DNA from: a virus
DNA length: 64,000 nucleotides
IMG/VR virus record: IMGVR_UViG_3300045988_184100
Span: 33,784 to 97,783 of that record
Direction: 5' to 3' (one strand)
The position numbers and the translations under genes were made by a program. The first letter of the stretch is position 1. Every line of letters begins with the position of its first letter. The notes under the pieces were generated by a model that was not told the DNA's origin, ran no database searches, and worked only from the letters and a program-made list of their open reading frames with translations. Of this stretch, positions 74 through 31,226 are shown piece by piece.

Positions 74-172
74 TTCTTTATTTCCTTTCTTGTTTTTAAG
101 AATTTAAGAGGAATGTTTTGTCATTTCGACAAAACGCTCCACACAGCGGAGGGAAGAACTATAATTACGAAT

Positions 173-262
173 GGTAAAACCCTGTTATTTCAGGGTGGTG
201 TATACCAAAAGGAGACGCCATGAATTGGTATACAACCCTGTTATTTCCGGGTGGTGTATACC
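173..262 (-). CRISPR. CRISPR-like mini-array, copy L: 2 repeats (distal one degenerate) and one 20-nt spacer; no cas genes
   Basis: Repeat 2 (227-262) is GGTATACAACCCTGTTATTTCCGGGTGGTGTATACC. It has an 8-bp terminal inverted stem (GGTATACA/TGTATACC) and an inner ACCC/GGGT stem. Repeat 1 (173-206) is a 34-nt degenerate version. The spacer (207-226) is AAAAGGAGACGCCATGAATT. The same repeat family with different spacers recurs at 30831-30998. Strand is inferred, not proven. Confidence 0.45.
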
Positions 263-402
263 CAGCACAGGTATTCAGTTCCCAGAAAGTGCTGGTCGCC
301 ACCTCTCACATAACAAACCAGCCAACAGAGTATTCCTGCTTCCACGACGACCATGCATCTCCACAGGCGTTAATTCCGGCTATACCGTCCGTACTCGTTT
401 TT
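263..402 (-). ncRNA. Conserved structured RNA scaffold attached to the repeat array (copy L), in the omega-RNA-like position 3' of the tnpB-like gene
   Basis: This segment is about 90% identical to 30999-31137. It contains three hairpins: CAGCAC...GTGCTG, CTGGT...ACCAG and GAGTA...TACTC. Both copies are bounded by an A/T run. In minus orientation it sits between the tnpB stop (458) and the repeats. Confidence 0.4.
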
Positions 403-457
403 ATTTCCTTGGCAATGTGTGCAATCATTGCACACTTTATTTGCTCGCCACAGGGCT

Positions 458-1516
458 TTAGGCAGGATTCTGCTCGGAGGCCATGCGCTGACCTTCGGAC
501 AGCACGACCTGTGCCAGCGCCTCGTCATGCTTTGCTTCCGGTGCTACGGTGGCGGTATCTACATCCACCAGCGTGCGTCCAGCCCAGTCCGCCTTATACT
601 TTATCATACCGGTAAGTTCAGACCAGCCGGCATCGAGGATGCTTTTAGCCTGCTCATTGCCCTCAACTAAGGGCTTAACGGCCACCTTCTCAACGGCAAT
701 AAGCTGGTTTGCGTTGACAAGTTCACGGCTGATTTTATGCCGGTAGTCATTGCGCTGATTGGCAATATGCTCATGGACGCCGGCTACCTTGCGCCGCTGC
801 TTCTCGTAGTTGGCAGAGCCTTTTTTCTTACGGGATAGACGCCGCTGCTCACGGGCCAGCCGCTTTGCAGACTTGCTCAGATGCTTCGGGTTCTCATAGT
901 GAACGCCGTTGCTGTCAATAGCCAACTCCTTCAGGCCGAGACTGATGCCCACTTCGCCGTCCACAATAGGCAGCGTGTCTCGCTCTACTTTACAGCAGAC
1001 AGATGCCCAGTATTTTCCGGTAGCAGACCGAGAAATAGTGACCTCGCGGGGAGACCCTTCGATGGGGCGCCCCGTCCCTCGCCTGAGCTTGTTGATTTTC
1101 TGATACTGCCCTCCAAACGGAACTTGAATGTAATCGTCCGTCACATAGATAGTACCAGCGGTCGTAAAACTCTGGGTCGGATGGGACGCGCCCTTAAATT
1201 TGGGATAACCGGGCTTCTCCCCCGCTTTAATGCGGCGGAAGAACGCTTTTCGCGCCTCAAACAAATCAATGATGGCATATCTCTCTGCCGTACAGCCGCA
1301 GTCCGCAAGCCAAGGCCAGCGCTCCCGCATCTCCGTGAGAACCTTCATACAGTCGAAGGTCGTCATCTTCTCCTGTCGGCGCTCATAGATTTTGGAGGTT
1401 TGTTCAAGGAAATGATTCCACACAAACCGGCAGCATTTGAAAGTCTTCTCGATGATTTCGACCTGCTCATCAGTCGGGTAAATGCGATACTTAAACGCTT
1501 GAAATGTAGTTGGCAT
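458..1516 (-). CDS. tnpB: TnpB-family (IS200/IS605 OrfB) protein, 353 aa, apparently nuclease-inactivated: RuvC-I Asp replaced by Ser, RuvC-III and zinc-finger missing (TldR-like)
   Basis: The N-terminus MPTTFQAFKYRIYPTDEQ...CCRFVWN is the classic TnpB start. The RuvC-I region reads VGISLGLKELAIDSNG where canonical is GIDLG...SDG. RuvC-II is IAVEKV, so the Glu is kept. After ...GRTLVDVD the protein ends in 32 unrelated residues with no CxxC zinc finger and no D-NAA-NI motif. ATG at 1514-1516 with AAAGGA Shine-Dalgarno; the six-frame ORF extends to 1642 only through non-coding upstream. Confidence 0.8.
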   Translation of the reverse strand: MPTTFQAFKYRIYPTDEQVEIIEKTFKCCRFVWNHFLEQTSKIYERRQEKMTTFDCMKVLTEMRERWPWLADCGCTAERYAIIDLFEARKAFFRRIKAGEKPGYPKFKGASHPTQSFTTAGTIYVTDDYIQVPFGGQYQKINKLRRGTGRPIEGSPREVTISRSATGKYWASVCCKVERDTLPIVDGEVGISLGLKELAIDSNGVHYENPKHLSKSAKRLAREQRRLSRKKKGSANYEKQRRKVAGVHEHIANQRNDYRHKISRELVNANQLIAVEKVAVKPLVEGNEQAKSILDAGWSELTGMIKYKADWAGRTLVDVDTATVAPEAKHDEALAQVVLSEGQRMASEQNPA

Positions 1517-7484: not shown

Positions 7485-7527
7485 TATTTTTTTTACATTA
7501 CAACACAATAAGAAAGGAGAAAACATA

Positions 7528-7794
7528 ATGGCACAGGCAAAAATGGTTTTCAGCTATCTCGGCCCCGTTCGTGTCTATGACGACATTACCACAAATAAGT
7601 GGGGCGGGACGACTATGGCGGTTTCTGAGAAACAGGCTCGTAACAACTTGGCCCACCAGTATCGAAAACAGCGCGGATTGCTCCAGTGTGTGCCTGTCAA
7701 AATGACGGGTGAGTTGACAAGCTACAACGCACCGATAATGCCGCCGTTCAGGTCCAAGCGGAGACCTTCGTATCGCGGAGGTGAAGCGCAATGA
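7528..7794 (+). CDS. Hypothetical protein (88 aa)
   Basis: ORF with AAAGGAGAAAAC Shine-Dalgarno. Confidence 0.45.
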   Translation: MAQAKMVFSYLGPVRVYDDITTNKWGGTTMAVSEKQARNNLAHQYRKQRGLLQCVPVKMTGELTSYNAPIMPPFRSKRRPSYRGGEAQ

Positions 7795-8063
7795 TGTGGA
7801 ATGGAAAGTGGAACGGAGCAAATGCCATCGTAGTTCACACGCCGCAGAGCTTTCGGTCGTTCAAGCGAGCTATCCGTTCTCTTGGCGATGTGTGGGCTGA
7901 CTGGAATCATGTGTATTTCAGTCAGTGCAGAGATTTGTACTCCGCAGCATACCTTCCCTGCTATCCAGACAAGAGTCCCGAAGATAGCACAATCACCTAT
8001 CACTGGCTCAAGGAAACTTGGTCCAAAGAAGGTCCTCGTGCCGTAGGCATGAACATTCAATAA
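7791..8063 (+). CDS. Hypothetical protein (90 aa)
   Basis: ORF overlapping the upstream stop (ATGA). Confidence 0.4.
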   Translation: MMWNGKWNGANAIVVHTPQSFRSFKRAIRSLGDVWADWNHVYFSQCRDLYSAAYLPCYPDKSPEDSTITYHWLKETWSKEGPRAVGMNIQ

Positions 8064-8079
8064 ACGAGGAGGAGAAGCT

Positions 8080-8283
8080 ATGTCTACACCGCTGTATGAG
8101 TTAATTGAGAGAGCCGAGCGTATGGATTCCATCTACTCCGAGCGCTACACATCTTTCTCTTCTGAACAGGATAGGCGTGCGAAGCAGTGTATTGCGGAGG
8201 CTCGCGAAGCTATCGAAGAGCAGCGAAAAATCTGCGAAAGACGACGCCAGCAGGCAGCCGTAACACTGTCTCGGCAACATTGA
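8080..8283 (+). CDS. Hypothetical protein (67 aa)
   Basis: ORF with AGGAGGAG Shine-Dalgarno. Confidence 0.4.
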   Translation: MSTPLYELIERAERMDSIYSERYTSFSSEQDRRAKQCIAEAREAIEEQRKICERRRQQAAVTLSRQH

Positions 8284-8304
8284 AAAGAAAGGAGTAAATT
8301 CATT

Positions 8305-8520
8305 GTGAAAGTAAAAAAGAAAATTCGTTACGCCGGCGAATGCTGCATTTGCCACGAACCCATTGAGGTTGGCGAAGAATATGTCGAGGCACCTTACGAA
8401 AACAAACAGTGTCATATCGACTGCATGGAGACAGAGCCGCTTAAAGCGGTTCTGTCTTTTTTCGGCATTCCGTCGTGTGTAACCAATTCTGAAGGAAAGG
8501 AGACAAGAATCTATGGGTAG
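8305..8520 (+). CDS. Small Cys-rich (CxxC...C..C) protein, candidate antitoxin or partner of the downstream MazF-like gene
   Basis: GTG start after AAAGGAG. Its last 8 nt overlap the toxin gene start. Confidence 0.35.
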   Translation: MKVKKKIRYAGECCICHEPIEVGEEYVEAPYENKQCHIDCMETEPLKAVLSFFGIPSCVTNSEGKETRIYG

Positions 8521-9094
8521 AAATGGAAATATCCGCAGGGGCGATGTATTTTGGGTCAATGCGAAAGAAATCGAAATCTTTTCCCCTTGGGCCCCGGAAG
8601 GAAGTCAGTTCCGCGATAAAGACGGACATCCTTCCAATAGCTCTGTTATCAGAGGACATCGTCCCGCAATCGTTGTATCTTCGGATGACCTGAACCGCTA
8701 CAGCAGTGTAGTGGAGGTCGTATTTACAACATCATCTCCAAAGATGCAGCAGCCCTCCCATGTACTCATCACGAGCACGAGCCGCCCAAGCACAGCACTG
8801 TGCGAGCAGCCGATGGCAGTTTCTGTCAATGAGCTGGGGGCCTATATCTGCCACCTGACTGAAGCGGAGCTGGTAGACATCGACGCCGCGCTGTACTACA
8901 GCATGGGGCTGAGTGCTCGTGTGAACGACAATGATGATAATACATGGCGTGCGCGGTATGAAACCATGCACAGGGCATATTCCGAGATGCTTGTCCATGT
9001 TATGCGAATCATGGACAGCAACAACAAGCGGGCCACACCGTACCCCGCAGCCACCGTTGGAAGAAGAAAGGAGCAAGCCGAAAATGAGGGGTAA
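8513..9094 (+). CDS. MazF/PemK-family toxin-like protein with an insertion and a C-terminal extension (193 aa)
   Basis: RGDVFWV ... RPAIVVSSDDLN ... VVEVVFTTS matches the PemK/MazF core (RPxxVxS..N....V..TT). Confidence 0.5.
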   Translation: MGRNGNIRRGDVFWVNAKEIEIFSPWAPEGSQFRDKDGHPSNSSVIRGHRPAIVVSSDDLNRYSSVVEVVFTTSSPKMQQPSHVLITSTSRPSTALCEQPMAVSVNELGAYICHLTEAELVDIDAALYYSMGLSARVNDNDDNTWRARYETMHRAYSEMLVHVMRIMDSNNKRATPYPAATVGRRKEQAENEG

Positions 9095-9356
9095 TCCTAT
9101 CTTCATCGTGTTTGCCTGTGACGCTTGGAAAGCAACAGACTCTATGCGTCTGGTTTCTGCGACGACTTCCCGCGCAAAGCTGAAGGAGCTTGTGGCAACC
9201 TGCGTCGAGTCCGAGACGTTTGAGTACGGCGAAGACTCCGTAGAGGCCGCTGCGACGCAGCTCCGCAAGGACTTTGATAGCGGATTAAGTATCTACGACA
9301 TCAACAACAACCTCAGATTCGGTATTATAACCGCTGCCGAGGATGGCGAGATGTAA
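9084..9356 (+). CDS. Hypothetical protein (90 aa)
   Basis: ATG 8 nt after GAAGGAG. Overlaps the toxin gene end by 11 nt. Confidence 0.4.
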   Translation: MRGNPIFIVFACDAWKATDSMRLVSATTSRAKLKELVATCVESETFEYGEDSVEAAATQLRKDFDSGLSIYDINNNLRFGIITAAEDGEM

Positions 9357-9372
9357 GAAAGGAGATGTAAAA

Positions 9373-10332
9373 ATGGGATACACTATCATTGATGCCCGCT
9401 CTTTCATCAAGACAACTCGTGGTATCATTCCCCTTGCCTTGGGTGGCAGCAACAACTGCTCCGAGTTTATCTACGACAGGAATTTCAAGCCGCGAGAGGT
9501 TCGCGAGCGCCACTGGTTCTTGCTGGGAGGAATCAATCTTCTGGAACTTCCTGAGGACGAATTTGTGGCGAAGGTGAATACCACCTTCCCCGACACCGAT
9601 GATGAGTGCTGGAAGATGAACAGCAAGTGGGTCACTTGCTCTCAGGCACGGAAATGGTTTGCTCGCGCCGCAAAGGATGCCGCCACGCTGGAGGACATCC
9701 TCGCCGCCAATCCCGGCGTCAACGACCTGAATGTAGGGCTGATGCCCTATACGTCCGGCGACCATCTGCTGTGGAGGTATGTCAGAACAACGGATGAGCT
9801 GGAAGTCTGGCTGGATGAGGCACGGGAACTGGTAAAAGAACACAAGGACCACTACATCTTCATGTCGTTCAGCGGAACACAGCGCGGCGAGCGCCTGCGA
9901 CCTGCCAGAGCGCGGGATGTAAAGGGTCCGCTTGTAGTTCAAAAGCGCAACGCGGGCTATGTGCGTGCGTTTGATAATGTGATTGGAAGAATAACTGTGC
10001 ATTTCACAAAGGATGTCAGAGATGCCATTCACTACCCGTCTGCGGAAGCAGCTACGGCAGCAATGGGAGAGGTTATCAGCGTAATGGGACTTGAGTTCAA
10101 GACCGTAACGCGCAAGATGACGGCGCCTCGGCCCTATGTCGTTATGTGTACGGAAAAGGCATACGCAGGGAAGTATGTGAAGAAATCCGTGAAGAACAAC
10201 CTCCAGTACACGTCCTCCGTGGATGATGCTCAGAGGTTTATCAGTGAGAAAGACGCTGAGGCAAAGATTTCTTCCTTGCGAGGCAAATTTCTCAGCGCAC
10301 AGTATCTTAAACCAGTTTACGTAGAAGCGTGA
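9373..10332 (+). CDS. Hypothetical protein (319 aa)
   Basis: ATG after GAAAGGAG. The six-frame track begins at 9343. Confidence 0.45.
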   Translation: MGYTIIDARSFIKTTRGIIPLALGGSNNCSEFIYDRNFKPREVRERHWFLLGGINLLELPEDEFVAKVNTTFPDTDDECWKMNSKWVTCSQARKWFARAAKDAATLEDILAANPGVNDLNVGLMPYTSGDHLLWRYVRTTDELEVWLDEARELVKEHKDHYIFMSFSGTQRGERLRPARARDVKGPLVVQKRNAGYVRAFDNVIGRITVHFTKDVRDAIHYPSAEAATAAMGEVISVMGLEFKTVTRKMTAPRPYVVMCTEKAYAGKYVKKSVKNNLQYTSSVDDAQRFISEKDAEAKISSLRGKFLSAQYLKPVYVEA

Positions 10333-10343
10333 ACAACAAGCCT

Positions 10344-10377
10344 AAAAAAAGAGCCGCTATGCGGCTCTTTTCTTTTG
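10344..10377 (+). terminator. Intrinsic terminator
   Basis: AAAAAAAGAGCCGCTATGCGGCTCTTTTCTTTTG. Confidence 0.6.
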
Positions 10378-10388
10378 CGCCGAAACCG

Positions 10389-10525
10389 TTGACATTATAA
10401 GGAAATGTGGTAGTATAGTAGTATAATTACGAAGATATTTTTATAAGGAGCTTTGTCTCCGTTTTCAGTCACATCATCACATTCAAGGCAGTTGTTCTCT
10501 TTTGAGAACGACTGTCTTTTTATAT
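10389..10525 (+). promoter_or_regulatory. Island module copy 2: promoter, leader and terminator
   Basis: Same promoter and leader as copy 1. The terminator stem GCAGTTGTTCTC/GAGAACGACTGTC covaries with the other copies. Confidence 0.6.
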
Positions 10526-10584
10526 ATTCACTACATTTTTGTTCCCATAAGACCTTAACACAGGCTGGGAGAAAGGAGAAAAAT

Positions 10585-11337
10585 ATGGCATATATCTGTG
10601 AAAAGCCTGCTGGTTCCTGTGCGTTATGTGAGCACTATCGTTTCGATGAGGAAAAGGGACGAAAAGTGTGCTTTGCCGCTGTGGATAAGTGTGAGGCAGA
10701 AAAAAAAGCAGCCGAGCTGAAGGTCGTTGCGTCGAAATCCGGATGTGATAAGGCAGAGAACACCTGCATCTCCTGTGAGAAGTATGTGTGGGACGACAAA
10801 GTGGCGCGTTACGTGTGTCTCGAAGGCGAGGATGCAGCGAGAACTGCAACCCTTCCCAGCAGAAGATACGCGATGCTTTTTGTGAGCCACTCCCCTATCG
10901 GCGAAAGCTCTCTCGTGGATGTGTGTGCGTTGTCCTTCGACACACTGGATGAGGCTCGCGTGGGCGTTGAGTTGGTAAAGAACGCGCACACACACGTCAG
11001 CAACCAGTTCAGAGGCAGACGCGGTCTTTTCCCGTTTGCCGGTGAAATGCTCTCCGATGAGGAGTGCCGCCGTGTGTTCGGCGCAAAGGTTCTCTGTGCG
11101 TATTCCCTCTACTACACGGATGAGTACGATGCAAGCGTCAAGGCGAGAGCTTTTTCCTACCTCGCGGTAGAGGCCGAAAATGCGCGGGATGTTATCCGGC
11201 GTCTTCTGCATCACAATTTGGACTGTGGCACCTGCCAGACCTTCGTTGATGAGGGTTGCGAAACCTATCACGACTGCCCTTACCACGGCGAGTGCGCCAA
11301 GTTGGGCGATGTCTGGGTAGAAAGAAAGGCGGTGTAA
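10585..11337 (+). CDS. Cys-rich hypothetical protein (250 aa)
   Basis: ATG after the conserved CACAGGCTGGGAGAAAGGAGAAAA element. Confidence 0.45.
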   Translation: MAYICEKPAGSCALCEHYRFDEEKGRKVCFAAVDKCEAEKKAAELKVVASKSGCDKAENTCISCEKYVWDDKVARYVCLEGEDAARTATLPSRRYAMLFVSHSPIGESSLVDVCALSFDTLDEARVGVELVKNAHTHVSNQFRGRRGLFPFAGEMLSDEECRRVFGAKVLCAYSLYYTDEYDASVKARAFSYLAVEAENARDVIRRLLHHNLDCGTCQTFVDEGCETYHDCPYHGECAKLGDVWVERKAV

Positions 11338-11339
11338 GA

Positions 11340-11672
11340 ATGTTGCTTTCTGTAAAGCTGAAAAACGGACTTACCTCTCTGGCAGAACAGATGGGCATGG
11401 ACATTACCACGCACCTGAAGAACATCACAGTCAACGGACAGAAGCGCGGCTGCTCTGGCTTCGTGACTTGCGGAGAGAGTTGCGTCTATGTAACAACCGA
11501 GCACTCTTGCTATGGACCTATTTCCGACAAATCCATGTGCCGCTATGCCAAGAATACAGAGGATTTCTCCAGCAACGGTCTGAAAAACGGCTATAACCAG
11601 TTTGTGGCCGACGATTTATTGGCCGCAAAAGTCATTTCCATGCTCAAAAACGGCAAAGGCATCCCCCGCTGA
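11340..11672 (+). CDS. Hypothetical protein (110 aa)
   Basis: ATG after AGAAAGAAAGG. Abuts the upstream stop. Confidence 0.4.
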   Translation: MLLSVKLKNGLTSLAEQMGMDITTHLKNITVNGQKRGCSGFVTCGESCVYVTTEHSCYGPISDKSMCRYAKNTEDFSSNGLKNGYNQFVADDLLAAKVISMLKNGKGIPR

Positions 11673-11700
11673 GGGGGATGCCGGCAGAAAGGAGGCTCCC

Positions 11701-12252
11701 GTGAGGAAGGACTACATTAGATTTCCCGCAAGGATGAAACAGCTCGTCAGCTTCACGGGCATGACTATTGAAAACAAGGGTAACTGTTATCCTACCGACA
11801 TAGACGGACTCATTGAGTATCACGACAAGGGGTATGTTTTCTTTGAGGTGAAGCATCGTAATGCCGCAATGCCTTATGGTCAGAGACTCGCGCTGCAGCG
11901 CATGGTGGAGGATGCTTCCAGAATTGGAAAGACATCTATCGCCATCGTGTGTGAACATACGGTAGACAATCCCCTCATTCCCGTCACAGTTGCAACGTGT
12001 CGGGTCAGGGAAATCTACTATTCTAAGGAGCATCGTTGGCGGGCACCAAAATACCCCACAATGACCGTGAGACAAGCGGTAGATGGGTTTCTCTACACGC
12101 CAAGCGTTCAGCAATACAGAACGCCCTCTGGCGGCATTAGCACCCTCGTGGTGGCTCAGGTAGCGAGAGGAGGGGCTATCCCCTTCCCTCCCGCCTACCC
12201 AGCCGCACAGAGCTACGGTGCTGTGCCTGATACGCTGAGGCAGAGCAGTTGA
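11701..12252 (+). CDS. VRR-NUC-like or PD-(D/E)xK nuclease-fold protein (possible)
   Basis: DIDGLIEYHDKGYVFFEVKHRNA...QRLALQ fits the D...E-V-K...Q pattern of VRR-NUC. GTG start 5 nt after AAAGGAGG. Confidence 0.35.
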   Translation: MRKDYIRFPARMKQLVSFTGMTIENKGNCYPTDIDGLIEYHDKGYVFFEVKHRNAAMPYGQRLALQRMVEDASRIGKTSIAIVCEHTVDNPLIPVTVATCRVREIYYSKEHRWRAPKYPTMTVRQAVDGFLYTPSVQQYRTPSGGISTLVVAQVARGGAIPFPPAYPAAQSYGAVPDTLRQSS

Positions 12253-12283
12253 AATCCGCGAAAAAAAAAGAAAGGAGAACAAC

Positions 12284-12736
12284 ATGGGAAGAAACAAGGT
12301 TTTGTCCCGCGATGAGGTTGTAAAGAACCTGAAGAGACAACTCACCGAGTGTGACATTAACGACATCCCAACGGACGCAATTCGACACTTGCAGATGGCG
12401 AGAATTATCTGCGAGTGCAATTATGTGTTCCTCGATGATGTTATCGAGACTCTGGCGAATTGGCTGAAAATGGATACCGGTGAAATTCCAAAGGGTGCGA
12501 TATCGCTCCTGCAGGACGCACTGGATGCCTGTCGCGGAACCTCACCACATAAGCGGCGCAAGGTAAGCGTAGAAGGCACCGATACACCGTCAGAGGTGTT
12601 CGACGAGCTCCTGTTTCTTGGAGATGTCACCGGATTGCTCGGTGAATGGTTTGACATGGACACTCAAGACATTCCTGAGACGGCGTTGGCTGCGCTGCAT
12701 AAGGTTTACGACCTTTGTTGTCAGGAATATGAGTGA
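12284..12736 (+). CDS. Hypothetical protein (150 aa)
   Basis: ORF with GAAAGGAGAA Shine-Dalgarno. Confidence 0.45.
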   Translation: MGRNKVLSRDEVVKNLKRQLTECDINDIPTDAIRHLQMARIICECNYVFLDDVIETLANWLKMDTGEIPKGAISLLQDALDACRGTSPHKRRKVSVEGTDTPSEVFDELLFLGDVTGLLGEWFDMDTQDIPETALAALHKVYDLCCQEYE

Positions 12737-12766
12737 CCCCGCGAGGAAAAGAAAGGAGAAAAAAAT

Positions 12767-13504
12767 ATGCCCAGAAAGGAACCTTATGAGCGGCGAATCT
12801 GCCTCTCACATTGTCCTGTCAAAGAGTGCGACACAGACATCTATCGTGGCTCTCGTTGCAAGGAACTGCGCGAGAAAGCCGGCATCCATTTTGACCCCGA
12901 TGCCTTTAAGGGCAAAAAGCCTAAGCCCATTATTTTCAACGGAGAGATGGTTCGAGCCATCCGTGAGGGTCACAAGACGGTAACACGCCGTGGTGCGTTT
13001 CACTTCGCCGGCAAACGAGCGGAAGGTCTGTACCGTGACGGTGATGGGCGTCTCGTGGCAGCCTTTGCTGATACGGATGCTGTCATCCGCAGCTTTCGCG
13101 CCCCGTTTGATAAGGGCGATATCCTGTATGTCCGTGAGACGACTTGTGCCTGCGATTTCAACCGCTGGCTCTACAAGGCCGATTATTCGGATGAGGATTT
13201 GAAAAACTCCCCTGAGGTGAGTTCCCTCATTCACTGGACACCATCCATTCATATGCCCAAAGAGGCGGCACGCATTTTCCTGCGTGTGACGGATGTGCGG
13301 TTGGAACATTTGAATGACATGAAGGACGAGGACTTCACTAAGGAGGGCATCACCTGTGACAGTACCTCCGGCGAGAACACCATGTCCCTTCAGGAGAAGT
13401 TTATCGAGCTGTGGGACAGCACGATTCCCGAACACAAGGCCCTGTCCAAGTGGGACGGAAACCCGTGGGTATGGGTCATTGAGTTCGAGGAGGTGCAGTT
13501 CTGA
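12767..13504 (+). CDS. ASCH-domain protein
   Basis: IIFNGEMVRAIREGHKTVTRRG matches the ASCH core. Confidence 0.5.
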   Translation: MPRKEPYERRICLSHCPVKECDTDIYRGSRCKELREKAGIHFDPDAFKGKKPKPIIFNGEMVRAIREGHKTVTRRGAFHFAGKRAEGLYRDGDGRLVAAFADTDAVIRSFRAPFDKGDILYVRETTCACDFNRWLYKADYSDEDLKNSPEVSSLIHWTPSIHMPKEAARIFLRVTDVRLEHLNDMKDEDFTKEGITCDSTSGENTMSLQEKFIELWDSTIPEHKALSKWDGNPWVWVIEFEEVQF

Positions 13505-13803
13505 TGGCGACGGATTACCATGCAGTGATTCAGGAGAATATCCAAAAACAGAACGGCACCTACGAGTCCAATGCAAACCCGTTTGGCATCTGCGGCACCT
13601 GTGGCTGCGAGCTTGAACCGAGCTACTTCGTGGAGGAGGAAGAAATCATCCAGCATGGGGTGCGTTTCAAGACCGGTCGTATTCGGCGGGCTGTGGACTG
13701 TCTCGTTTGCCCCAACTGTCTCCGTACTGAATGTGTGGACGACAGCTTCGACGGTCCTTGGATGGATAAAGCCCAGTGGAAAAAGCTCCATGGGATGCAT
13801 TGA
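13504..13803 (+). CDS. Small zinc-ribbon protein (99 aa)
   Basis: CGTCGC ... CPNC cysteine pairs. ATG overlaps the upstream stop. Confidence 0.4.
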   Translation: MATDYHAVIQENIQKQNGTYESNANPFGICGTCGCELEPSYFVEEEEIIQHGVRFKTGRIRRAVDCLVCPNCLRTECVDDSFDGPWMDKAQWKKLHGMH

Positions 13804-13824
13804 AAAATGAAAGGAGAAAAAACA

Positions 13825-14328
13825 ATGAAAGAAATTCTGTTTCGCGGCCAGATTCGGCGGCATGGTGAGAAAGTTCGCATGGCAACCGGAGCACCCCTGC
13901 CGGGAATTTGGGTCTACGGGGGCGCCGCACGTCCCCATAACAGCCCGAAGGACTTCGCCATCATCTACACGTACTTGTCCGACACGGCTGAAAGCCGCGA
14001 TGTTTGCGGCGTCTACGCGGATACCGTTACGCAGTATACCGGTATCGACGACAAGGATGGAACCAAGGTATTCGAGGGAGACATTGTGGAGACTTTTGAG
14101 GGCTTCCACCCCACGGCTCGTTTTAACGAGCACACAGTCGTGTTCCGCAACGGTTCCTTTGGCCTGCTGGTTAGTGAGTCTTTGAAAACAAAAACGGCAG
14201 CAGAGCTGATGGACGAGGCTTACGACAACGGACATTTTGTTCCGTTTTGCAAGCTGCTCGGAACCAAAATCCGTGTTGTTGGCAACATCTTCGATGGCGT
14301 CGCTGATGAGACCGCAAGAAATGAATAA
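13825..14328 (+). CDS. YopX-family phage protein
   Basis: MKEILFRGQ ... VYGG ... DKDGTKVFEGDIV matches YopX. ATG after AAAGGAGAAAAAAC. Confidence 0.5.
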   Translation: MKEILFRGQIRRHGEKVRMATGAPLPGIWVYGGAARPHNSPKDFAIIYTYLSDTAESRDVCGVYADTVTQYTGIDDKDGTKVFEGDIVETFEGFHPTARFNEHTVVFRNGSFGLLVSESLKTKTAAELMDEAYDNGHFVPFCKLLGTKIRVVGNIFDGVADETARNE

Positions 14329-14337
14329 CTCGAATCT

Positions 14338-14371
14338 AAAAAGAAGCTCCTTTTGGGGCTTCTTTTTTTTG
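14338..14371 (+). terminator. Intrinsic terminator
   Basis: AAGAAGCTCCTTTTGGGGCTTCTTTTTTTT. Confidence 0.6.
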
Positions 14372-14382
14372 CGCCGTTTCCG

Positions 14383-14516
14383 TTGACATTATAAAGAATT
14401 GTGGTAGTATAGTAGTATAATTACGAAGATATTTTTATAAGGAGATTTATCTCCGTTTTCAGTCACATCATCATATTCAAGACAGTTGTTCTCATTTGGG
14501 AACGACTGTCTTTTTA
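14383..14516 (+). promoter_or_regulatory. Island module copy 3: promoter, leader and terminator
   Basis: TTGACATTATAAAGAATTGTGGTAGTATAGTAGTATAAT ... GACAGTTGTTC-TCATTTGG-GAACGACTGTC followed by TTTTT. Confidence 0.6.
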
Positions 14517-14553
14517 TATATTCAGAACAAATAAAAACGAAAGGAGAAAACGC

Positions 14554-14730
14554 ATGAAACAAAAGGAGCTTACCCAGTATGAGTGCGATACACACCCGTC
14601 TATCCATTATACAGGCAGCGTGCGCGGTATGAAAGCAAGCGGCTTGTGGGGAAAGAACGACGAATGTGTGCGTTGTGGTAATTATATCTACAACCTGTCT
14701 ATCACACTTGGGCCTTACAAGCAGATTTAG
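14554..14730 (+). CDS. Small protein (58 aa) with a CxxC pair; not in the ORF track because it is under 60 aa
   Basis: ATG 6 nt after GAAAGGAGAAAAC. Translated by hand as MKQKELTQYECDTHPSIHYTGSVRGMKASGLWGKNDECVRCGNYIYNLSITLGPYKQI. Confidence 0.4.
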   Translation: MKQKELTQYECDTHPSIHYTGSVRGMKASGLWGKNDECVRCGNYIYNLSITLGPYKQI

Positions 14731-14745
14731 AGAAAGGAGAATAAA

Positions 14746-15054
14746 ATGGATACATCTTCGCTGCACTTTGTTGACAGCACATTGTCTCAGTATCGGAACG
14801 AGTTGTTGTTCCACCCCCGCAAGAAGTTGCCCGCAAAAGACGTCAACGACGCTCTGAGGCGGCTGCTGGAAATAACGGGAGTACAGGGAAAGGTCAGGGA
14901 CACCCTGACTACCCACCTGAACGACAGGTGCGGATATGCCCGCGATTTGAGTAAGCCTACGCCCTCAATCGCACAGGTCATCTCCGCTATGGAATTCGCG
15001 TTGCAGTCGGTTTATGCCGACCGGCCTGTTATGGAAGGGGGTGCAAGAGCATGA
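14746..15054 (+). CDS. Hypothetical protein (102 aa)
   Basis: ORF with GAAAGGAGAATAAA Shine-Dalgarno. Confidence 0.45.
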   Translation: MDTSSLHFVDSTLSQYRNELLFHPRKKLPAKDVNDALRRLLEITGVQGKVRDTLTTHLNDRCGYARDLSKPTPSIAQVISAMEFALQSVYADRPVMEGGARA

Positions 15055-15260
15055 GTAAGCATCGCTGGACAATCGAAGAGCTGAAGAGCGTCAATGACGC
15101 TAAGTTTGCTATGGCGATTCTGATGGAGCGCCGCAGTGAGTTGTCGAATCCCTACACCCCGTTCGCACAGCGTCTCACCAGCGTCATCAATACACTGATG
15201 GACATGGCTGTGGATGGCGGGCTGACAGACGAAGAAAGGAGTAAGAACAATGGCCGCTGA
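15051..15260 (+). CDS. Hypothetical protein (69 aa)
   Basis: ORF overlapping the upstream stop. Confidence 0.35.
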   Translation: MSKHRWTIEELKSVNDAKFAMAILMERRSELSNPYTPFAQRLTSVINTLMDMAVDGGLTDEERSKNNGR

Positions 15261-15615
15261 AATGAGACTTTACCGCGTAACGGTTGTCGGCAGCAATGCC
15301 GAGAGGCAGCGTGGAAAAGTGGTGGATGAGGTCACAGTCAAGGTCGGAACCAAGTGGCTGACGGACGATAACGGTCGGCGTTACTACAAGGCACCGCTTG
15401 AGGATGCAAACCGAAACCTCTACTTCCAGCTCAACACCATGTACTGCATGGACTACCGGCTGTATCAGACAGAGCAGGCCGCCAAGGATTACCTTCGGCA
15501 AGCGGAACTGCGTGTGACGCTTTGCAGAGCCGTTGGCGACTTCGGCTTCAACGCCCCGTTGACCGTGTTGGAGAAGGTCATGGACATTCTCAAGGAAGGC
15601 GGGTGCCTGAAATGA
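15250..15615 (+). CDS. Hypothetical protein (121 aa)
   Basis: ORF overlapping the upstream stop. Confidence 0.4.
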   Translation: MAAEMRLYRVTVVGSNAERQRGKVVDEVTVKVGTKWLTDDNGRRYYKAPLEDANRNLYFQLNTMYCMDYRLYQTEQAAKDYLRQAELRVTLCRAVGDFGFNAPLTVLEKVMDILKEGGCLK

Positions 15616-16391
15616 GCACGAAAATCTTTGACGCTTGGCGCATCAATTCTACCGACATCGGAGAGTTGGTCAAGCTCGGCAACGAGATTCGGGAAGTGCA
15701 GCAGAAGTCCTTCGTGGACGCTGTCTACAACTCGCTCGATTTCTGCCAGCTCGCTATCATCTTTGCCAAAAAGTCTGTAGAGGCTGTTGAGGAGCTCAAA
15801 CCTTCGTTTGCGTCAATCGCCGCGAACGTCGTTCACAAGTGCGTTTTGATGTACGATTGGACGCCATCTTTCACGATGACGGATAACGCCAAAAGCTCTG
15901 CGGAACAGATTCTGCAGAAGGAGGCTCAGAAACGGAAGATTTCATTGACAGTAGAGCAGAAGAGAAATCTGCTCGACGTTATCACTGAAATCTACGAAAT
16001 CGTCTCCCGTGATTGGCAGGCGTCACTGCTGTTTCTCAGGGGCGATAATGGCAGTACCTACATGAAAGGGTTCAATCTCACCAGAGAAGCGGCCCATTTC
16101 ATCGACTCCCAATATCCCCGCTTTGAGTACACCGACCAGACGGAGATGAATATTTCAGACTTCAACGAGTACACACGGCAGTACATTGACGCTGCAAAGA
16201 CGGAAGAAGAGCGCTATGAGAGGCTCTTGGAGGCCCAGCACGAACGTGGAGAACTGTGGGACAAAGCATTCGCAGGCCAAAGTGTATGGCGCAATGCCGG
16301 TCTCTCCGTCTCTCTCGTGCCGGCACAGCTTCAGGAACAGTTCGTGACTATCCACTCCATCTGCAAAAAGGTGTTCGGCACCGAAGCCTAA
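15612..16391 (+). CDS. Hypothetical protein (259 aa)
   Basis: ATGA overlap with the upstream stop. Confidence 0.45.
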   Translation: MSTKIFDAWRINSTDIGELVKLGNEIREVQQKSFVDAVYNSLDFCQLAIIFAKKSVEAVEELKPSFASIAANVVHKCVLMYDWTPSFTMTDNAKSSAEQILQKEAQKRKISLTVEQKRNLLDVITEIYEIVSRDWQASLLFLRGDNGSTYMKGFNLTREAAHFIDSQYPRFEYTDQTEMNISDFNEYTRQYIDAAKTEEERYERLLEAQHERGELWDKAFAGQSVWRNAGLSVSLVPAQLQEQFVTIHSICKKVFGTEA

Positions 16392-16414
16392 CGAAAAAAG
16401 AAAGGAGAAAAATC

Positions 16415-17056
16415 ATGGAGAATAACCAAAAGAACGCTGTGGAGGTCGAGACCAGCGTTCCTGACCTGATTCCGGCCAACTACCGCGAAAAGGCAGAAAC
16501 ACTGGGCTGGGTCATCGACGAGGACAAGGTCTGTGGTGTGTTCACGTTCAGGCAGGGGTCGCCTGCCGGCGAGGACTATTCCTTCGACCTGTACGCCGAC
16601 GATGACTTCAGCGACGGTGTGGCTGCTGCTGTGCGCCGCGTCTACGAGGACTTCGACGTTGACGAGCACGTCGCTCTGTTTGCGGAGGCTTCCGTAAAGG
16701 GCACGTCAGGCGTTCCGAAGCTGTCAGTGCTTGTCGAGGACGCCAAGGAAATCAATGAGATGCTTCTCACACTCGCCGAAGCGTTTGAAGACATCGAATC
16801 TGGTACATCAGAGCGGGAGCAGAAGGTGTATACCCGCTGCTGCCCCAACTGTGGTGGCGTATCTTTCTCTGGTCATCAGGTCCTCCACATTGATGTGTTG
16901 GTTGACATCGAAACGGGAGATTTCCTCGGAAATATCAACGACGAAATCGAATCTAACATCTACGAGTCGTCTGACCCCTACGGTCCATATCACTGCATGA
17001 CCTGCGGATTTGAATGCGACAACCTTTCCGAGCTGGAAAAGAGCGAGGTGGAGTAA
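16415..17056 (+). CDS. Acidic hypothetical protein with a C-terminal zinc-ribbon (213 aa)
   Basis: ATG after AAAGGAGAAAAATC. The C-terminus has CPNCGG and CMTCGFEC. Confidence 0.45.
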   Translation: MENNQKNAVEVETSVPDLIPANYREKAETLGWVIDEDKVCGVFTFRQGSPAGEDYSFDLYADDDFSDGVAAAVRRVYEDFDVDEHVALFAEASVKGTSGVPKLSVLVEDAKEINEMLLTLAEAFEDIESGTSEREQKVYTRCCPNCGGVSFSGHQVLHIDVLVDIETGDFLGNINDEIESNIYESSDPYGPYHCMTCGFECDNLSELEKSEVE

Positions 17057-17061
17057 CTCTA

Positions 17062-17223
17062 ATGTCGATTATTCTTTACTTCGCACTTACCATTCTCGTG
17101 ATGTGCGGCATATTCCTTGGCATAAAGAGACTGGACACACAGGACCTCTTGCCGCCAATCATCTGCAGCGTTTCTGTGGGCGTTATTATGGTGGAACTGT
17201 TCGCACTTGTTCGGTGGTATTAA
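17062..17223 (+). CDS. Small membrane protein (53 aa)
   Basis: Hydrophobic ORF. Confidence 0.3.
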   Translation: MSIILYFALTILVMCGIFLGIKRLDTQDLLPPIICSVSVGVIMVELFALVRWY

Positions 17224-17237
17224 CGGAGGTGAAGGAC

Positions 17238-17414
17238 GTGTTCAAAATGCTGACGAACCCCTTGTTTATAGCCTATGTCGTTCTTATCATCGCCGCAATG
17301 GTCGTCTCAGTCATAGCCGCAAAAAAATCAGACCAGCCAGAAATGCTTCCGGCTGCCTTTGGTACTATTGCGCTCACCATTGTTTTGGTTATTGTAGCGG
17401 TCATAACCGGTTAA
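17238..17414 (+). CDS. Small membrane protein (58 aa)
   Basis: GTG start 8 nt after GGAGG. Hydrophobic. Confidence 0.3.
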   Translation: MFKMLTNPLFIAYVVLIIAAMVVSVIAAKKSDQPEMLPAAFGTIALTIVLVIVAVITG

Positions 17415-17482
17415 ATTAAAGCCAGCGGGAGGGGCGCTCTGCCTCTCCCCTGCTTAAAAAAGAAAAGGAAGGAGATATTCGA

Positions 17483-17701
17483 ATGGCATACAGCATTGCT
17501 GAAATCGCGGCCATCAAAGCGGAGTATCCCGCAGGCACAAGAATCAGACTGAAACACATGGACGAAAGCAAGTTTCCTGTGGCAGACGGCACGACCGGTA
17601 AAGTCACTTATGTGGACGATAACGGCCAGATTCATATGCGTTGGGATAATGGCCGCACGCTGCCGCTCGTTCCGGGCGTCGATGATTTCGACAAAATCTG
17701 A
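17483..17701 (+). CDS. Hypothetical protein (72 aa)
   Basis: ORF with AAGGAGATAT Shine-Dalgarno. Confidence 0.4.
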   Translation: MAYSIAEIAAIKAEYPAGTRIRLKHMDESKFPVADGTTGKVTYVDDNGQIHMRWDNGRTLPLVPGVDDFDKI

Positions 17702-17732
17702 GCTGTTTTTTCAAAAAGAAAGGAGAAAAATT

Positions 17733-18776
17733 ATGGGTAATACATCTATCAGAGCCGCTGCATCTTTCTGCAACGAGAACACGCTGGTCAAGGTCTACCG
17801 CTATAATCCTAAGTACGACAGGTTCGAGATGACCTTCGTTCCTTTCAAGGACATCCGCAAGAGCGATTCTGTGAGCGTCTTTGCCAGTGATGGGCACGAG
17901 ATGCACTTTTCCGTTCTCACAAATGCTTCTTTTAAGAAGGACGAGCGATACGGGAACGAGTGCGGTTGGTCTGTGAAAGTCACTGAGGACGGCGGCAAGA
18001 CGGAGATGGTTCTTCGTCCCACCGATTTCGCGCCCTACATCATCAGCCTTTCCGTTACCGACGAAGGAGAGTGGCGCGGCTGCCGGCTGCTTTTCGAAAG
18101 CGTCCTCAACGACACCGAAGCTATCGTCAACAATATGCGGGCGCGATTCGAGCCGCGTGTTGCGCCGGAAAACACCTGCGGGCGGCATTCCGACACAGTT
18201 GCGGCCATGGCGAAGAGAGACCTCACTCGTGAGTGGACGGAGCAGTTCGGCTTCCGGCTCATTTCGGACAGCGTAAACTTCGCCCAGTGCGGTGTGAAGG
18301 ACATTCTCTCTGAGAAGTTCTTCAATTCCCCGACCATGGAGCTGACGTTCTTCGCCTATTCCGACGGCGAGTATTCAGCGTCCCCCCTGTTCTTTGCCAA
18401 ACTGCCCGATTTGGGCGAACGGTACAACAAGCCTGAGGGACGTGCTGCAATCGCAGAACTGCTGCAGAAGCTGGACGAGATGTACGGCGACCTGCCTGAA
18501 GACACAGAAAAATGGGCACTGGAGTATCAACTTTGGGCTCGTATGCTGCTGGCAGAAGGTGCGGTCATGCTGAATCCGAAGCACCTCGACCTCCCCGACT
18601 CCAGCGCCTACGAATTCATAACGCTGGCTTTCGGTAATAAAATGCTGAAAGACAGCGGTGACGGTATTGCGTGGGCAAAGGCTGTCAAAACACCTATCAG
18701 CGTAATCGCCGAGGCGTGGGAGAATGACATGAGTGAGTCCGGCGATGAGGCTTTTACCTGCATCGTAACTGGCTGA
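17733..18776 (+). CDS. Hypothetical protein (347 aa), paralog of the next gene
   Basis: Shares SPLFFAKLP.LG ... YGDLPE.TE.W.LEYQLWARMLL.EGAVMLNP.HL with 18793-19839. Confidence 0.5.
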   Translation: MGNTSIRAAASFCNENTLVKVYRYNPKYDRFEMTFVPFKDIRKSDSVSVFASDGHEMHFSVLTNASFKKDERYGNECGWSVKVTEDGGKTEMVLRPTDFAPYIISLSVTDEGEWRGCRLLFESVLNDTEAIVNNMRARFEPRVAPENTCGRHSDTVAAMAKRDLTREWTEQFGFRLISDSVNFAQCGVKDILSEKFFNSPTMELTFFAYSDGEYSASPLFFAKLPDLGERYNKPEGRAAIAELLQKLDEMYGDLPEDTEKWALEYQLWARMLLAEGAVMLNPKHLDLPDSSAYEFITLAFGNKMLKDSGDGIAWAKAVKTPISVIAEAWENDMSESGDEAFTCIVTG

Positions 18777-18792
18777 AGTTGAAAGGAGAACC

Positions 18793-19839
18793 ATGGATAA
18801 TCTGATTTCAAACAAGCGAAAGCTGCACTGCGACGAGAACGTATTGGTCCATATCGTGCGCTACTGCCATGATACGGATGATACAGATGGCGACGGCATT
18901 AGAGAGGTGGAAATGTATGTCCCCTTCAAGTATATCTGCAAGGGTGATACCATTGATATTCCTGATAAGGACACCGACGATGCCTTCAGAACAACCGCCT
19001 ATGCTGCTGAGGACGCTTCGTATAGCGAAGCTCGTGCGGGTGGTTGGTTTGTGCCGGTCGCCTGTACTGGGCAGAAAGAGTATGTTCTGAAGCCTGATGA
19101 TTTCGCACCTTGGCTCGTGACCCTGAGTGTCGCGTTCACACACGGGTCGTCCTGCAAGCTCTTTTTCGAGTGCGTGGAACGACGCGAAGAGAAGCTGTGG
19201 GCAAACATCCGCAGAATCTTTGACGATGTACCGACGCTGCGGCATGAGCTGGGTTTCGTTGCCCTCGTCCGACATATGGCACGGAAGTACCTCACACCTG
19301 ATAGGACGGAGCCTCTTGGCTTCAGATTCCTTTCGGATGATGTTGTCTGGAGCAACTGTAAAGTGAAGGATATCCTTCCCGACCGGTTCTTCGCAGCAGC
19401 GGACATGACGCTAAGGTTTTACGCCTATGCGGAAGACGAGTATGCTGAAAGTCCCCTATTCTTCGCCAAGCTGCCGTATCTCGGTACGCATCACGGAACT
19501 CCCGCAGGCTGCGTGATTTGCGCCTCCATCCTGCGAAAGCTGGACGAGCTGTATGGCGACCTGCCGACGGAAACGTCCCGCTGGTCGCTTGAATACCAGC
19601 TCTGGGCCCGTATGCTGCTGACGGAAGGCGCAGTCATGCTGAACCCGATGCATCTGACACTCTATGAAGACGAGCATATCTTTAATTCGCTTGTCTCTTG
19701 CGATGATGCGCTGGAAGTCAGCGGTGATGCCATTGTATGGAAGAAGGCATCCGGCACTCCCAGCAACAAGATTACTGAGGCGTGGGAAATAGAGACGGAA
19801 AAGTCTGGCTGCAATGACACATTCACTTGCGCCATTTAA
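18793..19839 (+). CDS. Hypothetical protein (348 aa), paralog of the previous gene
   Basis: Same conserved C-terminal core with a divergent N-terminus. Confidence 0.5.
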   Translation: MDNLISNKRKLHCDENVLVHIVRYCHDTDDTDGDGIREVEMYVPFKYICKGDTIDIPDKDTDDAFRTTAYAAEDASYSEARAGGWFVPVACTGQKEYVLKPDDFAPWLVTLSVAFTHGSSCKLFFECVERREEKLWANIRRIFDDVPTLRHELGFVALVRHMARKYLTPDRTEPLGFRFLSDDVVWSNCKVKDILPDRFFAAADMTLRFYAYAEDEYAESPLFFAKLPYLGTHHGTPAGCVICASILRKLDELYGDLPTETSRWSLEYQLWARMLLTEGAVMLNPMHLTLYEDEHIFNSLVSCDDALEVSGDAIVWKKASGTPSNKITEAWEIETEKSGCNDTFTCAI

Positions 19840-19865
19840 GCCACGGAAAGGAGGAACAAACGAAA

Positions 19866-20507: not shown

Positions 20508-20531
20508 TCGCAAGATAAAAAACTAAATTTC

Positions 20532-20565
20532 AAAAGAAGCTCCTTCGGGAGCTTCTTTTTTTTAC
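20532..20565 (+). terminator. Intrinsic terminator
   Basis: AAAAGAAGCTCCTTCGGGAGCTTCTTTTTTTT. Confidence 0.6.
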
Positions 20566-30830: not shown

Positions 30831-30998
30831 GGTATAGAACCCTGTTATTTCTGGGTGATGTATACCTTGGGTCTCCTCATATATAACCACCGCCCCGGTA
30901 TATAACCCTGTTATTTCCGGGTGGTGTATACCGTATTCGGCAGGATTGTTCAAAACTGCAAAGGTATACAACCCTGTTGTTTCTGGGTGGTGTATACC
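30831..30998 (-). CRISPR. CRISPR-like mini-array, copy R: 3 repeats and 2 unique 30-nt spacers; orphan
   Basis: Repeats at 30831-30866, 30897-30932 and 30963-30998 belong to the same 36-nt family as copy L, with a few SNPs. Spacers are TTGGGTCTCCTCATATATAACCACCGCCCC and GTATTCGGCAGGATTGTTCAAAACTGCAAA. Confidence 0.45.
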
Positions 30999-31137
30999 CA
31001 GCACAGGTATTCAGTTCCCCAAAGTGCTGGTCGCCACCTCTCACGTGACTACCAACCAACAGAGTATTCCTGCTTCCACGACGACCATGCATCTCCACAG
31101 GCGTTAATTCCGGCTATACCGTCCGTACTTGTTTTTT
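30999..31137 (-). ncRNA. Conserved structured RNA scaffold (copy R), directly abutting the tRNA-Ser 3' CCA
   Basis: About 90% identical to 263-402. Substitutions are clustered in one internal segment (CACATAACAAACCAGCC versus CACGTGACTACCAACC). Confidence 0.4.
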
Positions 31138-31226
31138 TGGCGGAGAGAGTGGGAGTCGAACCCACGGATGCTTCCACATCGCCGGTTTTCAAGACCGGTG
31201 CCTTCAGCCGCTTGGCCATCTCTCCA
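31138..31226 (-). tRNA. tRNA-Ser (anticodon UGA), long variable arm, CCA encoded
   Basis: GGAGAGATGGCCAAGCGGCTGAAGGCACCGGTCTTGAAAACCGG ... GGGTTCGACTCCCACTCTCTCCGCCA. Confidence 0.85.

Follow-up and report, generated by a model that had tools for sequence, protein, structure and literature searches.

The DNA considered here is a window of 64,000 nucleotides (nt) from the IMG/VR virus record IMGVR_UViG_3300045988_184100 (positions 33,784 to 97,783 of that record), the left end of which carries a miniature array of the CRISPR type, placed beside a gene for a TnpB homologue. Along the minus strand, the locus comprises a tldR-like gene (458..1516) for a protein of 352 amino acids (aa), probably a nuclease-dead TnpB relative, a 140-nt guide-RNA scaffold of omega-RNA derivation (263..402), two 36-nt hairpin repeats (227..262 and 171..206) on either side of a single 20-nt spacer (207..226) and, beyond the array, a terminator-like hairpin (137..151). 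Between gene and scaffold lies a perfect hairpin (412..435, GTGTGCAATCATTGCACAC), which scores as a terminator on the plus strand. The spacer is identical to the Shine-Dalgarno (SD) sequence and start codon of an excisionase-like gene of another integrative element, and spacers from sister arrays tile the regulatory region of the same operon.

The spacer and its mini-array

The plus strand of the spacer reads AAAAGGAGACGCCATGAATT, in which AAAGGAGA (208-215) is followed by CGCC and by ATG (220-222). An earlier reading of the letters alone (the sequence-only reading) had described it as a near-perfect ribosome-binding site plus start codon, and this description is correct. Transcribed from the minus strand, it would yield the guide RNA 5'-AAUUCAUGGCGUCUCCUUUU-3'. 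The scaffold-proximal repeat (GGTATACACCACCCGGAAATAACAGGGTTGTATACC) prolongs the scaffold as its last stem-loop, while the terminal repeat (GGTATACACCACCCTGAAATAACAGGGTTTTACC(AT)) is degenerate, its last stem being disrupted, as is seen where a CRISPR array is oldest, and is followed by the terminator-like hairpin, made of CTCCGCTGTGTGGAG and then CGTTTTGTCG. The chance expectation for the 36-nt repeat in the window is 0 copies, and three more are found at 30831-30998. The array consists here of this one spacer, which adjoins the scaffold and is the sole guide. No second copy of it occurs in the window at up to 3 mismatches, in agreement with the earlier remark that a 20/20 match was not to be seen elsewhere in it.

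The sequence-only reading had also likened the spacer to the gene starts of an accessory island within the window. The stereotyped starts of that island are real: at 7.5-25.8 kb, GAAAGGAG(A)..ATG is found at more than 20 plus-strand open reading frame (ORF) starts, and this region accounts for 18 of the window's 20 plus-strand AAAGGAGA sites. The uniformity of the GAAAGGAG(A)-N-ATG starts at 7500-25800 is far above that of the rest of the window. The proposed match to them is not borne out, the best identity between the spacer and any gene start of the window being 12-13/20 and confined to the generic Shine-Dalgarno part. As a bare pattern, moreover, the resemblance of the spacer to a gene start is not beyond chance, because GGAG-N4-10-ATG on either strand is present in 0.9% of the window's 20-mers and in 0.6% of random 20-mers. 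The spacer looks like a ribosome-binding site because it copies an actual gene start, that of xis in another integrative element, as described below. Targeting of translation starts as a general rule finds no support in the array family, where an SD-ATG arrangement is seen in 1 of 61 spacers, with about 1.2 expected from window-like DNA.

The TnpB-derived protein

The 352-aa protein scores 256 bits against the NCBIfam model guided_TnpB (cut-off 100) and matches the Pfam families OrfB_IS605 (PF01385) and HTH_OrfB_IS605 (PF12323), its score for PF07282 lying under the cut-off; the comparison with ISDra2 TnpB (8H1J) gives E = 1e-49. Catalytic residues were assessed in an alignment of the protein with its nearest canonical relatives and ISDra2 TnpB. 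The RuvC-I motif GIDVG is changed to GISLG, so that Asp is replaced by Ser, and the whole CxxC...CxxC zinc finger is deleted. The same substitution and the same loss are found in the closest three homologues (99%, 87% and 79% identity) and in all four clade members (P0001-P0003 included), whereas the RuvC-I Asp and the zinc finger are both present in the closest canonical relatives (about 51-53% identity). Judged by these residues, the protein is probably a nuclease-dead relative of TnpB.

The tldR-like gene occupies one conserved neighbourhood and has no transposon context; no tnpA lies beside it in the window or in the related loci L001 and L002. In PLSDB and the GenBank phages no close relative of the protein was found, every match being below 60% identity. 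Two further observations concern the family. The homologue P0003 (L002 10001-11047) is a mosaic, in which residues ~38-175 are identical to the canonical TnpB P0011 and both ends belong to the dead clade, a composition that implies recombination of an active tnpB with a tldR-like gene. Furthermore, P0022 and P0026 (~320 aa) are TnpB relatives without the zinc finger and the RuvC-III region, with RRDD in place of the GIDxG RuvC-I motif, and they are possibly another nuclease-dead lineage.

The guide-RNA scaffold and the transcribed strand

Omega-RNAs are encoded just 3' of tnpB genes. The scaffold is homologous to the DNA directly 3' of the canonical tnpB genes P0005, P0007 and P0010, in the orientation of the gene, and the core common to the scaffold and these flanks is GAATTnACGCCTGyGGAG...GAAGCAGGAA. 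No Rfam family was matched by the scaffold. From the related loci, 41 distinct sequences of scaffold plus first repeat were collected, and 26 of these variants were aligned to obtain a consensus fold, which reaches -37.1 kcal/mol on the tldR (minus) strand versus -11.4 kcal/mol on the other. Pairing is kept in 98.2% of the pair cells, and in at most 53% when the partners are slid. The G-U pairs, present in 277 of the 1221 pair cells, turn into A-C on the opposite strand, where about a quarter of the cells is mismatched. Compensatory changes are seen at three pairs, and at 21 pairs only one side varies, nearly all of these remaining paired via G-U.

The homology to tnpB flanks, the strand-specific fold and the terminator-like hairpin of the minus strand past the terminal repeat (151-137) make a minus-strand RNA the most likely product, with a transcript that most likely runs from the scaffold through the repeat and the guide (AAUUCAUGGCGUCUCCUUUU) to the terminal hairpin. 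It is very probable that such a minus-strand RNA serves the adjacent 352-aa protein. In a minus-strand RNA the guide is antisense to a translation-initiation region, as had been anticipated from the sequence for this case, and it would pair 20/20 with the SD and the ATG.

Array family and spacer turnover

A scan of IMG/VR yielded about 29 contigs (up to 192 kb) that encode the protein at 87-100% identity. Each has 2-4 modules made of a scaffold plus an array, some modules being without the gene, and in all loci examined it is the first module that directly follows the tldR gene on its 3' side. The existence of many short arrays, each with its own scaffold, suggests that linkage in cis matters. 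The number of unique spacers extracted was 61, later 74; they are mostly 30 nt long, and the repeats 36 nt.

The content of the first array turns over between near-identical carriers. Among loci with a 99-100% identical protein and the same trailer, it holds 0, 1 or 2 spacers: it is empty in L007, L008, L014 and L027, where only the degenerate terminal repeat is left; it holds the spacer under study (sp003) in the window, L004 and L006; it holds sp000 and sp003 in L001, with sp003 at the trailer end as in L004 and L006; and it holds sp057 in L025 and the pair sp010 and sp011 in L005. The extra repeat-spacer unit adjoins the scaffold, and the last repeat is degenerate. The sequence of sp003 is invariant in every carrier having it (the window, L001, L004 and L006).

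Other modules show different arrangements. At 12651-13038 of L001, at the end of that contig, one array lies between two inverted scaffold copies which both face into it; the repeats being near-palindromic, guides could be produced from both strands. In second and third modules, the spacers sp004, sp006, sp007, sp008 and sp009 (14-30 nt; L004 12751-12960 and 14262-14332) are kept in 12-16 loci, most of the carriers, in the manner of fixed guides. No targets were found for these conserved spacers.

The xis-int leader of another integrative element

A metagenome scan was performed with the spacer plus flanking bases chosen to exclude arrays, and 19 contigs were obtained, of which 12 represent one locus and 7 unrelated gene starts. 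In the 12 contigs, at least five of them labelled human gut, the match is 20/20, and the 20-mer constitutes the SD and ATG of an 80-aa gene (MNSVLLDRRDSAKYLGISVSNLDRL...) with the Pfam domain HTH_17 (excisionase-type helix-turn-helix), here called xis. Directly after it comes the gene of a 404-aa tyrosine integrase (int). A search for spacer matches at gene starts, as had been advised together with the sequence-only reading, therefore has an exact result at a gene start of a mobile element. It is virtually certain that the spacer derives from, and matches, the start of xis. The suggestion that it had been taken from a phage or island gene start is right as to the mobile-element gene start and wrong as to the window's own island, since the target is missing from the window and from the related IMG/VR contigs.

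The seven other contigs with the 20-mer (L050, L052, L056, L061, L063, L065 and L066; environmental) belong to 4 sequence families, have no matches to other spacers and are attributed to chance. Such chance recurrence at unrelated gene starts means that an exact 20-nt SD-ATG match is not, by itself, evidence of targeting. The assignment of the target is validated by independent spacers of other arrays, which fall in the same 360 bp. Using the coordinates of the target contig L049, and giving as strand that of the guide-sense sequence, sp011 (16 nt) matches 516-530 on the minus strand (15/16) and sp049 (19 nt) 556-574 on the plus strand (19/19). Both sp057 and sp023 match 669-698 on the minus strand (30/30 and 29/30, respectively), which is also the strand of sp010 (757-788, 30/32), sp018 (795-824, 29/30) and sp003 itself (841-860, 20/20). 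Finally, sp042 matches 847-876 on the plus strand (29/30). Eight of the 74 unique spacers, namely sp003 and seven from sister arrays, are consequently contained in this one stretch, and all matched spacers lie in one integrative element. A promoter is predicted at 471-499 (TTGACT-17-TGnTATTTT), and the spacers tile from ~+10 to codon 8. Their clustering therefore corresponds to the regulatory region of one operon and not to ribosome-binding sites. Three short trailer-end spacers, from three array lineages, are among them: sp003 (20 nt), sp049 (19 nt) and sp011 (16 nt).

The spacer sp042, from L019, and the 20-nt spacer have an overlap of 14 nt, in opposite orientations, and each reaches past the other, which means that both derive from one longer source sequence. 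As regards an adjacent conserved motif, which the sequence-only reading had proposed to look for, all six protospacers whose 5' end is intact have a G at position -1 of the guide-sense strand, where the flank in the array itself is C. A 5' adjacent motif with G at -1 is tentatively proposed from these six protospacers.

The window does not contain the target even when up to 3 mismatches are allowed, nor does the target occur in any related locus or in IMG/VR. Its absence from the carrier element indicates that another element is targeted, and not that the carrier regulates itself. Within IMG/VR, the exact spacer matched only two arrays, the 20-mer across the junction of the spacer and sp042 matched nothing, and four other spacers matched only further arrays. 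Four matches of the junction 20-mer in GTDB genomes do not extend beyond the 20-mer and were discarded as chance. A 22-mer version of the junction found nothing in metagenomes, because sp042 differs from the target at one base, and the 36-nt composite gave only insignificant partial matches with GenBank phages and PLSDB plasmids.

In the target element, a regulator, the leader, xis and int form a conserved module, adjoined by a variable cargo of giant surface proteins (Pfam). One IMG/VR contig ends in the same integrase and lacks the xis leader. No Rfam family corresponds to the leader. Within it, at L049 552-622 and 659-708, there are two tandem homologues of the scaffold 5' domain in the orientation of xis (nhmmer E ~1e-6 each), which are also found in L051, L053, L057 and others; sp049 and sp057 match inside these scaffold-like copies or at their edge. 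The copies are possibly a decoy, a sensor or an insertion-sequence relic. The region L049 736-860 has a predicted fold (z = -3.4) in which the SD and AUG of xis pair with the upstream UCAUGGUUUCUC. An antisense promoter (L049 836-808) and a strong terminator of the minus strand (763-736) are also predicted in the leader and suggest the production of a short antisense RNA.

Proposed mechanism

The mechanism proposed here starts from the observed anatomy, homology, strand, array turnover, exact target and tiling. In the course of evolution, the last hairpin of an omega-RNA-like scaffold would have become a repeat, and its single guide slot an array able to gain and lose spacers. The putatively nuclease-dead TnpB derivative would load the RNA made of scaffold, repeat and guide, and the resulting ribonucleoprotein (RNP) would find the xis-int leader of a co-resident integrative element by recognising a short motif on the 5' side and pairing over 16-20 nt. 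The guide would pair with the coding strand (and the mRNA) at the xis SD and start codon. Once bound, the RNP would block RNA polymerase, and either xis-int transcription would be stopped or its antisense control would be perturbed. The guide of the window, ~350 nt past the predicted promoter, would act as an elongation roadblock; sp011 and sp049 lie just past the predicted transcription start, and the sister guides would act along the promoter-proximal leader. As an outcome, a rival element sharing the cell would be hampered in its excision or integration. From sequence, then, the protein would be expected to bind RNA and to be unable to cut DNA, its binding to repress, and repression to bring a biological pay-off to the carrier.

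The silencing reading rests on the RuvC-I Asp-to-Ser change with loss of the zinc finger and on the tiling of a regulatory stretch by eight spacers: from the tiling of one regulatory region a promoter-proximal binder gains, whereas a nuclease would gain nothing. The earlier preference for silencing over cleavage is thus favoured by the dead nuclease and the tiling, while the reason then given, the ribosome-binding-site content of the spacer, is not its basis. Repression and not cleavage is the probable outcome, and the full model, that of an RNA-guided repressor with an adaptive array engaged in mobile-element conflict, is held with moderate confidence. A further extension, in which this would be a natural adaptive form of CRISPR interference (CRISPRi), is at present tentative and more doubtful than the model itself: a very large mobile element would lock its rival via the excision-integration leader, and the scaffold copies of the rival's leader may sense, sponge or hijack the protein, in a two-sided arms race of RNA mimicry.

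Several facts weigh against the repressor model. As to the protein, the RuvC-II Glu is retained and a RuvC-III Asp is possibly kept (KHDEALA aligned to DRDENAA), which would allow residual or altered catalysis. As to the RNA, its strand and ends are deduced from sequence and fold, and a promoter-like site on the plus strand (TCCACA-16-TATAAT, 138-165), together with the plus-strand terminator (417-435), could give the opposite transcript. As to the array, the spacer stands at the trailer end and has 20 nt, not 30; close relatives of the array do without it, that is, it is dispensable; some short spacers are truncated copies of 30-nt ones (sp014/sp029 and sp032/sp019); spacers past the first in arrays with several have no evident way to meet the scaffold; and among the 38 ORFs of the window there is no match to Cas1, Cas2 or Cas4 that could account for spacer uptake. 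As to the target, the predicted antisense promoter and terminator are overlapped by three sister guides, sp018 and sp010 among them, and the effect on xis could be of either sign; finally, a host shared by carrier and target is an assumption of the model.

Alternative explanations

Among the alternatives, an interference system that destroys its target comes first, albeit as an unlikely one. Its nuclease site would have been kept or rebuilt, or a nuclease would be recruited, as in type V CRISPR. The RuvC-II Glu and the Asp aligned to the RuvC-III motif are in accordance with this, the array behaves like an immune array, and rearranged yet active RuvC sites do exist in the TnpB/Cas12 family (PMC10691335). 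However, the replacement of Asp by Ser plus the full loss of the zinc finger fits the decay pattern of TldR proteins, and for a nuclease there would be no point in drawing 8 of the 74 spacers from a single 360-bp stretch of regulatory DNA.

Next, and decidedly improbable, is the possibility that the spacer is a decaying relic, old, truncated, located at the trailer end and without function, with a look of ribosome-binding site that is accidental to its origin. Its place beside the degenerate repeat, its 20 nt instead of 30, its absence from near-identical relatives, the truncated copies among other short spacers (sp014/sp029, sp032/sp019) and the rarity of the gene-start look (1/61 spacers) would be expected of such a relic. 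On the other hand, its identity to the target is 20/20 in 12 contigs and its sequence is the same in all carriers holding it, it adjoins the scaffold as the sole guide in the window, and the short trailer spacers of two other lineages, sp049 and sp011, match the same 360 bp. Moreover, the working guide length of TnpB is 16-20 nt, which also counts against decay.

Action at the RNA level has a low probability. In this case the guide, with or without the protein, would pair with the SD and AUG of the xis mRNA and either block translation or trigger decay. The perfect antisense match to SD and AUG invites this explanation, as do the 5 of 7 leader protospacers that are antisense to the xis transcript and the natural leader, in whose predicted fold SD and AUG are already hidden by the upstream UCAUGGUUUCUC, a sequence that the guide resembles. 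Yet sp042 and sp049 are in sense orientation and unable to pair with the mRNA, 5/7 is no different from chance, and the conserved 5' flanking G fits an adjacent motif at the DNA level; to our knowledge, TnpB-family proteins target DNA, which likewise counts against it.

Equally improbable is a plus-strand RNA intended for a Cas effector of the host, that is, a viral mini-array or natural single-guide RNA with a 20-nt guide, a hairpin repeat, a 140-nt tail and a T-run, to which the TnpB relative would be incidental. The promoter-like site at 138-165, the T-run at ~396-402 and the terminator at 417-435 would serve such an RNA, the combination of a 36-nt repeat with a 30-nt spacer is the geometry of type II systems, adaptation genes were not found among the 38 window ORFs, and phage-encoded single-guide RNAs for Cas9 exist (bioRxiv 10.64898/2026.06.01.729453). 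Against it, the consensus fold collapses to -11.4 kcal/mol on that strand, with about a quarter of the pair cells becoming A-C, the tail shows homology, in tnpB orientation, to the omega-RNA regions of TnpB, the tldR gene has the first module directly at its 3' side in all loci examined, and the promoter-like sequence is confined to the trailer type of the window, the other trailer type being different there.

Lastly, that SD and ATG are the working start of a plus-strand ORF (220-615, 131 aa) has a negligible probability, since this ORF, although it exists and has a strong and suitably spaced SD, crosses the scaffold in antisense, continues into the tldR gene and has its start wholly within a spacer that sister loci with near-identical flanks lose or replace.

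The second array and the carrier element

A second array is located on the minus strand at 30831..30998, with 3 copies of the repeat and two 30-nt spacers (30867-30896 and 30933-30962). No targets were found for these two spacers in the related loci, in IMG/VR or in the contigs of the target locus. It is served by a second scaffold copy (30999..31136, minus), ~94% identical to the first and with no tldR gene beside it, which starts 2 nt past the 3' end of a tRNA-Ser(UGA) gene (31138..31225, minus; ARAGORN); the same junction occurs in L045. The tRNA gene may supply both a promoter and an RNase-made 5' end for this scaffold. Four other tRNA genes (Gly, Thr, Thr and Glu) are placed at 1903-2443, directly upstream of the tldR-like gene and on the same strand.

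Besides tRNAs, the window encodes a topoisomerase III (39649-41964), a RecG-like helicase and two giant adhesins of 1916 and 3444 aa (46106-51856 and 53633-63967) with T-Q ester, SpaA and thioester domains. One of its 38 ORFs matches the PADLOC model of DpdF (E = 8e-55), from the Dpd DNA-modification defence. No PHROG structural match, which would point to virion genes, was obtained in the 64-kb window, and the relatives of the carrier are listed as viral contigs in IMG/VR. Possible identities of the carrier are a huge phage, a phage-plasmid and a conjugative megaplasmid, and it looks more like a conjugative element than a phage.

Significance and comparison with known systems

The system provides a concrete and testable intermediate between an omega-RNA and a CRISPR array, and it comes with an identified natural target, a regulatory region and not a random one. 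Repression guided by RNA, it suggests, can be adaptive and not only hard-wired, and mobile elements of the human gut would seem to fight each other over the excision-integration switch of integrative elements. From the applied point of view, a protein of 352 aa with a guide RNA of ~200 nt and 20-nt targeting would be a compact scaffold for CRISPRi. In the literature that was searched, no description was found of a probably dead TnpB with an array fused to its scaffold.

The closest likeness is with TldR proteins, which are TnpB-like, nuclease-dead and RNA-guided repressors. As in these, a TnpB-sized protein with a decayed RuvC domain and a reduced C-terminus is encoded outside a transposon, on a mobile element; the guide RNA has an omega-RNA-like scaffold, and its sequence lies immediately 3' of the gene, on the same strand; and what the guides match is the promoter-proximal DNA of one particular operon. 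In the TldRs described so far, a single fixed guide of ~16 nt is directed against a host promoter such as those of fliC and oppA (Wiegand et al., bioRxiv 10.1101/2023.11.30.569447; 10.64898/2026.09.22.753285), and arrays are not mentioned for them in either of these reports. In contrast, the guide slot is here a repeat-spacer array which turns over among near-identical carriers, each genome has 2-4 modules of scaffold and array, some of them gene-less, and the target is another mobile element. With respect to canonical TnpB, the difference lies in the RuvC D-E-D triad and the zinc finger, which are not intact, and in the lack of a tnpA context.

With type V CRISPR-Cas, the system shares an effector of the TnpB/Cas12 type beside an array of variable spacers. 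The usual type V system differs in that, judging from the residues, RuvC is inactive here, and in that adaptation genes are missing among the 38 window ORFs; V-K and V-M, which are exceptions as to the nuclease, nevertheless count as type V. Many type V subtypes are also devoid of adaptation genes (PMC10691335). Cas12m (type V-M) is reported to silence a mobile element without cleavage, and V-U24, V-U43 and V-U44 have altered RuvC sites (Altae-Tran et al. 2023, PMC10691335). Similarities to Cas12m and these V-U groups include an effector derived from TnpB, a downstream array, the failure to find adaptation genes and a degraded catalytic site. Unlike Cas12m, the protein is still 51-53% identical to ordinary TnpBs and its zinc finger is deleted; with 352 aa, it is smaller than a typical Cas12m. 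Furthermore, the first repeat is joined in cis to a complete omega-RNA scaffold, in place of a separate trans-activating CRISPR RNA (tracrRNA) or a simple CRISPR RNA (crRNA). The architecture, intermediate between omega-RNA and CRISPR array, resembles that of TranC (LaTranC, PDB 9JFO), to which the sequence relation is weak and local (E 3e-12, residues 237-320); TranC proteins are, as far as is known, active nucleases.

Finally, spacers of one mobile element that match another are also known from the type IV CRISPR systems of plasmids and from the CRISPR of phage ICP1 directed against PLE. The nuclease-free type IV systems work through binding and not through cutting. In neither case is the effector family related to the one described here, where the spacers focus on one excision-integration regulatory region. 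Taken together, the traits of a fixed-guide repressor (TldR) and of an array-guided effector (Cas12) are joined here in one small system.

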